Below, one piece after another: positions 1-524 of a DNA stretch of 524 nt (positions within the stretch are counted from its first letter, which is position 1; the number at the start of each line of letters is the position of its first letter). Origin of the DNA: Escherichia coli (GTDB lineage Bacteria > Pseudomonadota > Gammaproteobacteria > Enterobacterales > Enterobacteriaceae); NCBI RefSeq assembly GCF_003334385.1, contig NZ_QOWN01000171.1. The stretch is one strand, 5' to 3'. The notes below the pieces were generated by a model. It was not told the DNA's origin, ran no database searches, and worked only from the letters and a program-made list of their open reading frames with translations. Position numbers and translations under genes: made by a program.

Positions 1-1
1 T

Positions 2-25
2 CCGCGATCACTGCGGGATTTTTTT
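2..25 (+). terminator. Putative intrinsic-terminator-like element: short GC hairpin followed by a T7 tract, oriented for plus-strand (antisense/convergent) transcription. Truncated by the window edge, so highly tentative.
   Basis: Plus strand 2..16 is ccgcg-atcac-tgcgg: pairs 2-16, 3-15, 4-14, 5-13 are Watson-Crick and 6-12 is a G-U wobble, with a 5-nt loop. It is followed by 'ga' and then ttttttt (19..25). The stem is short and may extend past the window. On the minus strand the same region reads A-run then hairpin, which is not terminator polarity for the gpI-like transcript. Confidence 0.25.
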
Positions 26-32
26 ATTCTTT

Positions 33-524
33 TTACCCCTGCCGCCCGATAACCACGACCTTTCCGCCCCCGCCTTCATCACGGGTACTGATGTCCTGGG
101 ATATACGGCGGGAGCCAACCAGCATTTCCCCGTAAGGCACCGGCATCGGGTTACCCTGGGCAATCATGTTGTCCAGTGACGAAAAATACGTGTTCTGTCT
201 GCCGTTATCCGTTGCGCGGTAATCCGGTGTTTTTGCCTTCGGGGCCAGCATCTGGGCCACACCACCCAGAATCATGCTGGCTCCAAGTGAAAACAGCATC
301 GTGGTGGCAGAAAAACCACCGGCTGCCAGGGCTGAACCCCATAACGCCATCGAGGCACCGGCAGTGAGGAAAGAGCCCACGATGGCTGCCGCCCCCAGCA
401 CAATCTGCAGTCCACCCTTTCCGGCCCCGGCCAGTCGCGGCACAATGTGGATGACCGTTCCCTCACCCAGCTGTTCGTGAAGACGGGCGTACACCGCCTC
501 CGGTGCCGTGTCATCACCGGCAAT
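33..524 (-). CDS. Tail tip assembly protein I, phage lambda gpI family; partial, with the N-terminal part beyond the window edge at 524. TAA stop at 33..35.
   Basis: The 153-aa ORF on the minus strand (33..494) reads ...GTVIHIVPRLAGAGKGGLQIVLGAAAIVGSFLTAGA...LFSLGASMILGGVAQMLAPKAKTP...DNGRQNTYFSSLDNMIAQGN...YGEMLVGSR...DEGGGGKVVVIGRQG. This is collinear with, and closely similar to, the C-terminal roughly two-thirds of lambda tail assembly protein I as I recall it (...GAVIHIVPRVAGAKSGG.FQIVLGAAAIAGSF...LFSLGASMVLGGVAQMLAPKARTP...DNGKQNTYFSSLDNMVAQGN...YGEMRVGSR...VVVIGR). I translated codons 495..524 by hand: the frame stays open (...IAGDDTAPEA-V-YARLHEQL), and the 'M' at 492..494 is a GTG (plus-strand cac), so the true start is upstream of the window. 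The stop at 33..35 (plus tta = TAA on minus) was checked by hand. Confidence 0.9.
   Translation of the reverse strand: MAGDDTAPEAVYARLHEQLGEGTVIHIVPRLAGAGKGGLQIVLGAAAIVGSFLTAGASMALWGSALAAGGFSATTMLFSLGASMILGGVAQMLAPKAKTPDYRATDNGRQNTYFSSLDNMIAQGNPMPVPYGEMLVGSRRISQDISTRDEGGGGKVVVIGRQG

Follow-up and report, generated by a model that had tools for sequence, protein, structure and literature searches.

A lambda-like block in a prophage gpI homologue overlaps the left edge of a longer core conserved across the tail-tip protein family

When a short stretch of a prophage protein is almost identical to its phage lambda counterpart, does it mark a functional surface that sets it apart from the rest of the protein? 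The question is raised by a 524-nucleotide stretch of Escherichia coli DNA, referred to below as the window. A first-pass annotation had singled out a 20-residue block encoded there at 150-209 as strongly conserved against a more divergent background, and had proposed that it is an interaction site with another tail-tip protein and a signature for finding distant homologues of lambda gpI. We examined the block against lambda gpI, against the wider gpI family and against the published structures of the lambda tail tip.

The sole long open reading frame of the window is a gpI-family frame on the minus strand (33..524), which enters at base 524 and runs through 163 codons to a stop at 33-35. It represents the 3' part of a gene for tail tip assembly or insertion protein I, the 5' end lying outside the window. 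Judged from sequence comparison, its product is the C-terminal 163 residues of a gpI homologue from an E. coli-type lambdoid prophage. The protein aligns with residues 64-223 of lambda gpI at 67% identity (109/162, E=2e-69 by BLASTP), matches chain I of PDB 8IYK (8iyk_I, E=2.3e-64 by phmmer) and is recognized by the PHROG 32 'tail assembly protein' profile (E=7.7e-55). At the DNA level the window is 96-97% identical to genes annotated as 'tail tip assembly protein I' in Escherichia phage PhiR5_1 and many Stx-converting phages, and at most 99.0% identical to E. coli chromosomal prophage genes; 1910 of the 5426 complete genomes searched contain a match. Homologues were detected by tblastn in 1473 phage records. 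The reading frame extends upstream in relatives that are 98-99% identical, where it aligns with lambda gpI from residue 1.

A Pfam search with the 163-residue fragment returned no match, because PF06805 (Lambda_tail_I) covers only the ubiquitin-like (Ubl) domain, being matched in lambda gpI by residues 14-97 only. PF06805 thus leaves the block outside, unlike PHROG 32, which spans it. NCBIfam gave no match for either the window protein or lambda gpI. The PHROG 31 profile of gpJ also includes an I-like stretch, in keeping with the fusions of I to J that Iyer et al. had observed in 2006 (PMC1779556). The sequences P0001, P0056, P0057, P0061, P0063 and P0074 were considered as natural I-J fusions and rejected; they consist of gpI pieces joined to J, K or L fragments and are probably prophage deletions or misassemblies.

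The TAPI family, whose C-terminal domain was named TAPI-C by Iyer, Burroughs and Aravind in 2006 (PMC1779556), is defined by a Ubl domain, a Gly-rich linker and TAPI-C, and the window protein resembles it in having the end of a Ubl domain with its conserved glycine, a Gly-rich hydrophobic region and TAPI-C. Only the last 34 or so residues of the N-terminal Ubl beta-grasp domain are kept. This remnant includes the domain end VIHIVPRLAG (426..455, minus strand; protein 24-33), with P29 and G33 falling in the near-invariant columns of lambda P92 (95%) and G96 (96%). Cleavage of gpI by the JAB peptidase of gpK has been proposed to occur at the conserved glycine that ends the Ubl domain (PMC1779556), and G33 is a candidate for this glycine. 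The cryo-EM maps show lambda gpI from residue 101 onward only (PMC11101478).

An AlphaFold2 model of the monomer (163 residues, 61-row alignment) places two helices at residues 38-68 and 72-93, so that the Gly/Ala-rich two-helix region typical of gpI/TAPI proteins is found here as well. The first, H1 (321..413, minus strand), is hydrophobic, contains the invariant G44 and corresponds to the H1 described for lambda (PMC11101478). The second, H2 (246..311, minus strand), is hydrophobic and Gly/Ala-rich, contains the invariant G81 and G88, and is predicted with a pLDDT of about 76-84; it has been described as a putative membrane-inserting helix (PMC11101478). At the other end, the window protein terminates in VVVIGRQG, where lambda gpI terminates in VVVIGR, the two additional residues (162-163) being encoded at 36-41 on the minus strand. 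The last residue of proteins of this type varies between G, A and R among close relatives.

The genomic neighbourhood, as seen in relatives of the window, is that of a lambdoid tail module. In the gpI family, the gene is expected between K, which encodes an NlpC/P60 protein with or without JAB, and J, which encodes the central fibre or hub protein. The gene order in PhiR5_1 is H-M-L-K-I-J-lom, and relatives at 96-99% identity carry an M-L-K-I-J-lom module; the window itself ends 32 nt past the stop of gene I. We extended the comparison to 20 diverse loci, 18 of them carrying annotation. Gene I immediately follows K in all but one of the 18 annotated loci (17), the exception being Vibrio pVa-6, in which other genes intervene, and a lambda-J-like gene detectable by phmmer lies directly downstream of I in 17 of the 20. 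In Ralstonia YO080_4 the J-like gene starts about 0.7 kb downstream of I. For Serratia phage Ulliraptor and Klebsiella phage KLB29, no lambda-J N-terminus was detected by phmmer in the 3 kb fetched; these two loci carry tailspike or tail-fibre genes after gene I, unlike the other 18.

The I-J intergenic region differs in length between the two lineages, measuring about 216-240 nt in that of the window (L002:3791-4030, L004) and 60 nt in lambda (L001:2446-2505). The part of it that falls inside the window holds a terminator-like hairpin, TCCGCGATCACTGCGGG followed by T7, at 1..27 on the plus strand, antisense to gene I and 6 nt beyond its stop. One such site was found where 0.6 were expected from shuffled sequences, which is not significant alone. 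Read on the sense strand, the same element is an A-run followed by a hairpin. The lambda I-J gap has a sense-strand hairpin with a T-run, GAAACCGCCTGCGGGCGGTTTTG, and in phage ETEP102 a terminator is annotated immediately downstream of I.

The block itself, DNGRQNTYFSSLDNMIAQGN (150..209, minus strand), comprises residues 106-125 of the window protein and is equivalent to residues 168-187 of lambda gpI, which read DNGKQNTYFSSLDNMVAQGN when gene I is translated from NC_001416. The two are identical at 18 of 20 positions, with R in place of K171 and I in place of V183. The near identity that had been reported is thus real, and the lambda strings on which it was based all proved exact. The flanking differences are real in the case of KTPDYRAT (window 210-233), which replaces RTPRIQTT at lambda 160-167. 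The second example, DEGGGGK against DEGDGGQ (lambda 211-217), had been misplaced: DEGGGGK is encoded at 60..80, and bases 57..74 encode GGGGKV.

How unusual is such a block in a pair of proteins this similar? In our own alignment, the window protein and lambda gpI are 71% identical overall (113/159). The best 20-residue stretch of the pair is not the block but helix H2, where LFSLGASM[IV]LGGVAQMLAPKA (window residues 77-97, about lambda 139-158) is identical to lambda at 19 of 20 positions; it lies 27 residues upstream of the block. When the 159-column identity string was shuffled, a 20-residue window with at least 18 identities appeared somewhere in 70% of 20,000 permutations, and at least eight such windows, as observed, appeared in 25% of the trials. 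The pairwise island is thus no more than chance would produce. Among 80 near-identical IMG/VR relatives (loci at 96-99% identity, retrieved with a 10-sequence alignment), the block holds 1 of the 22 variable sites (R109K only) for 2.7 expected, which is unremarkable.

The wider family was sampled by an exhaustive phmmer search of a 50%-identity representative library, which yielded 2755 matches. We aligned 80 of the top 150 matches, namely those spanning lambda 95-205, with a median pairwise identity of 34%. The representatives were therefore picked for alignability through residue 205, and conservation was measured as column entropy, not as a tree-aware rate. The block has a mean column information of 2.19 bits, compared with 1.89 for lambda 64-223, and ranks 60th of 141 sliding windows. 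We then filtered the set by dropping two artefactual sequences and a further two rows that were truncated or chimeric, and by collapsing redundancy at 60% or 50%. In this filtered set the block ranks 68th or 72nd of 141, and its identity to lambda is 0.38 or 0.35, compared with 0.39 in the rest of 87-212. These conservation figures rest on 65-80 diverse family members. Across the family the block is ordinary, its conservation not exceeding that of the remaining protein, and the strong conservation that had been claimed for it holds only within the lambda clade, where it is not statistically distinctive.

Two library sequences left out of the filtered set, P0019 and P0131, are lambda-type gpI proteins in which S>F/L, P>L/F, A>V, R>C and T>I/M replacements recur systematically. 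C-to-T conversion of DNA gives this pattern, and the two sequences most likely stem from assemblies of a bisulfite-treated lambda spike-in.

Conservation along the family alignment has a clear shape, and the block straddles one of its boundaries. Its first residues, DNGKQ in lambda (168-172), average 1.3 bits, similar to the variable linker at 160-167. Lambda 160-172 and 210-223 average 0.8-1.2 bits, compared with 2.6 bits for 173-209. Inside the block, F176 (93%), N181 (97%), Q185 (86%) and G186 (99%) are near-invariant, and the series continues past it with P190 (96%), Y193 (93%), G194 (100%), G199 (99%) and S204 (90%). The best-conserved windows begin at lambda 181-186. These columns delineate a family-wide core of TAPI-C at 84..194 on the minus strand (protein 111-147, lambda 173-209), with F, N, Q, G, P, Y, G, G and S at 86-100% in the 80 representatives and the consensus [NS]xxF[SG]xLxNxxAQGxPVPxxYGExxVGSxVISxGI. 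The window protein carries the TAPI-C motif F-x4-N-x3-QG-x3-P-x2-YG-x4-GS-x3-S at F114, N119, Q123, G124, P128, Y131, G132, G137, S138 and S142. The conserved segment starts inside the block and extends 22 residues beyond it, the last 12-15 residues of the block lying within the core. The block is thus the left shoulder of a longer family-wide core and not a special island, and its first five to eight residues (DNGKQNTY in lambda, the tail of the plug described below) are peculiar to the lambda clade. Outside the core, islands of conservation occur where the Ubl domain ends (P92, G96), at G108 and in H2 (G143, G150, L155).

The same profile bears on one alternative, namely that identities happen to bunch up here in two proteins about 70% identical, the block carrying no information beyond homology. 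The permutations, the better stretch in H2, the middling family rank (60-72 of 141) and the unexceptional variation among close relatives all agree with it. However, conservation in the family is clearly uneven, as the contrast between 173-209 and its two flanks shows, and nine columns reach 86-100%, which places the C-terminal 12-15 residues of the block in a constrained segment. We therefore consider it unlikely that chance accounts for the block as a whole.

A second alternative is that the block is DNA recently exchanged between phages, its identity owing to recombination and not to selection. Lambdoid tail genes are known mosaics, and the block has the lowest nucleotide divergence from lambda of the segments compared, 0.167 compared with 0.321 overall. 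Nevertheless, 10 of its 60 nucleotides differ (16.7%), silent substitutions occur in 7 of its 18 identical codons (0.39, compared with 0.51 over the whole alignment), no run of identical DNA extends beyond a few codons, and the H2 segment is similarly diverged (0.183). The silent changes, together with the overall divergence of the block, point to selection on the protein and not to a recently shared patch of DNA, and exchange is a very improbable explanation. Constraint on the nucleotides themselves, whether from a regulatory signal inside the gene, from RNA structure or from an overlapping gene on the other strand, is hardly credible: open reading frames overlap the block on both strands (176..367, plus; 164..265 and 8..163, minus), but they are short, out of frame and without support from any search run, no promoter-like site was found in the window, synonymous sites in the block vary freely, and it is the amino-acid pattern (F, N, QG, P, YG) that is conserved across relatives 30-40% identical in protein. 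Recombination and nucleotide-level constraint were both rejected on this silent-site variation.

The reading that we favor places the block in the C-terminal 'insertion' domain (TAPI-C) of a lambdoid prophage tail-tip protein of the gpI family, where it very probably has the plug and gpJ-threading role that it has in lambda. Our own contribution to this assignment consists of sequence identity, the family profile, silent-site divergence and synteny; the location of lambda 159-175 and of the residues from 167 onward was established by others. Lambda gpI is present in PDB entries 8IYK, 8IYL, 8K35, 8XCG and 9E7M. Residues 159-175 form the plug of the tail-tip lumen, under the C-terminus of the tape-measure protein, and the beta strands of gpI thread gaps in the hub domains of gpJ (Ge et al., PMC11101478). 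In the LamB-bound open state, gpI is ordered just from residue 167 onward and this segment moves together with the gpJ hub domains, the residues from 167 onward being ordered among these domains in both the closed and the open state (PMC11101478). Xiao et al. [quoted passage not shown] In the published structures, the region that contains the block is thus bound to the hub domains of gpJ, to the other chains of the gpI trimer that forms the plug, and to the C-terminus of the tape-measure protein (PMC11101478, PMC10721106, PMC12617516).

Mapped through the alignment, the lambda plug corresponds to 186..236 on the minus strand (protein 97-113) and overlaps the first eight residues of the block, and the start of the block nearly coincides with the onset of order in the open state at 167. 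The plug-equivalent stretch is the least conserved of the C-terminal half, with a mean information of 1.0-1.4 bits. Since the plug half of the block varies across the family, any contact that it makes would be specific to the lambda clade. The suggestion that the block is an interaction site with another tail-tip protein therefore agrees with the published cryo-EM structures, which show gpJ, gpI and gpH bound to this part of the protein. The conservation argument from which that suggestion was drawn does not hold, as the block is an island neither in the pair nor in the family; the route to function failed although the guess fits the structures (PMC11101478, PMC10721106, PMC12617516).

By homology to lambda gpI, the first eight residues of the block (DNGRQNTY) would form the distal half of the plug. 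With two other gpI copies, this plug would seal the tail-tip lumen under the coiled coil at the C-terminus of the tape-measure protein. The other twelve residues, FSSLDNMIAQGN, would begin the loop and strand segment that passes between the gpJ hub domains and is held there by beta-sheet augmentation. Upon receptor binding the cone would open, and the threading segment would stay attached and move as a rigid body with gpJ. The identity of the block with lambda very probably reflects ordinary purifying selection on packed contacts within the lambda clade. That the prophage protein acts as lambda gpI does, and which partner each block residue would touch, are deduced by homology, the contacts being taken from the residue ranges quoted in the papers.

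The monomer prediction is consistent with such a role. In the AlphaFold2 monomer the block is coil with a pLDDT of about 53-61, and low confidence in the lone block is expected for a segment that becomes ordered only on a partner. We also modelled a single-chain chimera, in which the C-terminus of I was joined by a 30-residue linker to residues 1-720 of J, using 17 paired rows (the window lineage, lambda and 14 diverse phages). The J part of the chimera is folded and matches the lambda gpJ chains, with a TM score of 0.74 to 8xcg_F and of 0.57 to 8k35_A and 8iyk_F. In this model, a weak test for the block given 17 alignment rows and a single chain in place of the trimer with gpH, the block has a pLDDT of 26-42, which neither lends independent support to a contact with gpJ nor counts against one. 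Window residues 129-149 (lambda 191-211) are predicted as beta strands, with a mean pLDDT of 83 for 129-138 and 57 for 139-148. The chimera lends mild support to lambda 188-209, and not 168-187, as the main single-chain anchor on gpJ.

The closest known system is lambda gpI itself. Over the 160 residues compared, the window protein is 67-71% identical to it and has the two hydrophobic helices, the C-terminal motif and every near-invariant residue; near-identical relatives of the window share the K-I-J gene order. Apart from the K171 to R and V183 to I replacements, the window protein differs from lambda gpI in the plug-proximal linker (KTPDYRAT for RTPRIQTT), in a two-residue insertion between H1 and H2 and in the C-terminal QG, and its lineage has the longer I-J gap. 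A more distant homologue (E=1.3e-15) is the 'insertion protein' gp34 of phage T1 (PDB 9L9P), which retains F, N, G, P and YG from the core motif. As in lambda, its trimer builds a tripod below the C-terminus of the tape-measure protein, within a cone that resembles that of lambda (PMC11945409). It is only about 35% identical, and its equivalent of the block, SSKNKPSYAFGGAVNTTAAG, has about 5 of 20 residues in common; residues 92-163 alone were modelled, the strands beyond the plug being unresolved in that structure (PMC11945409). A functional analogue is the plug domain of T5 pb3, present in three copies, whose tripod shuts the tail-tip lumen at the same position and for which an interaction with the outer membrane upon opening has been proposed (PMC10721106). 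Unlike gpI, it is an insertion within a single hub protein and not the product of a separate gene, and no sequence similarity to it was detected here.

A further idea concerns the division of the block into two halves. The clade-specific DNG[KR]QNTY may co-evolve with the cognate tape-measure C-terminal helix or with the neighbouring gpI chains, and so set the compatibility of tail-tip modules, and the invariant F-x4-N-x3-QG may act as a hinge or latch that, by coming free of gpJ, sets the moment at which the plug opens and DNA leaves. We regard this as speculative and rather doubtful. Neither the co-evolution nor the hinge or latch is stated in PMC11101478, PMC10721106, PMC12617516 or the other papers cited here.

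The place of the block in the virion was already known, as several structures of lambda gpI in the virion have appeared since 2023, and nothing new is added in this respect; the finding matters little beyond annotation. For annotation, it carries three practical points. Islands of identity in a pair of proteins about 70% identical are expected by chance. C-terminal fragments of gpI such as that of the window get no Pfam match, Lambda_tail_I modelling the N-terminal Ubl domain alone. Finally, with its present borders the 20-mer serves poorly as a signature of distant homologues, contrary to what had been proposed, because diverse relatives match it at just 4-11 of 20 residues. The strict motif F-x4-N-x3-QG-x3-P-x2-YG is present in 58 of the 80 representatives, and a relaxed form extended to G-[STGA] in 72 of them. 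In a six-frame translation of 22 diverse tail loci, the relaxed motif picked out 21 of 570 open reading frames of at least 80 residues, where by count about one gpI per locus is expected. Searches for distant gpI proteins are thus better served by the F-x4-N-x3-QG-x3-P-x2-YG-x4-GS core or by PHROG 32 than by the 20-residue block.
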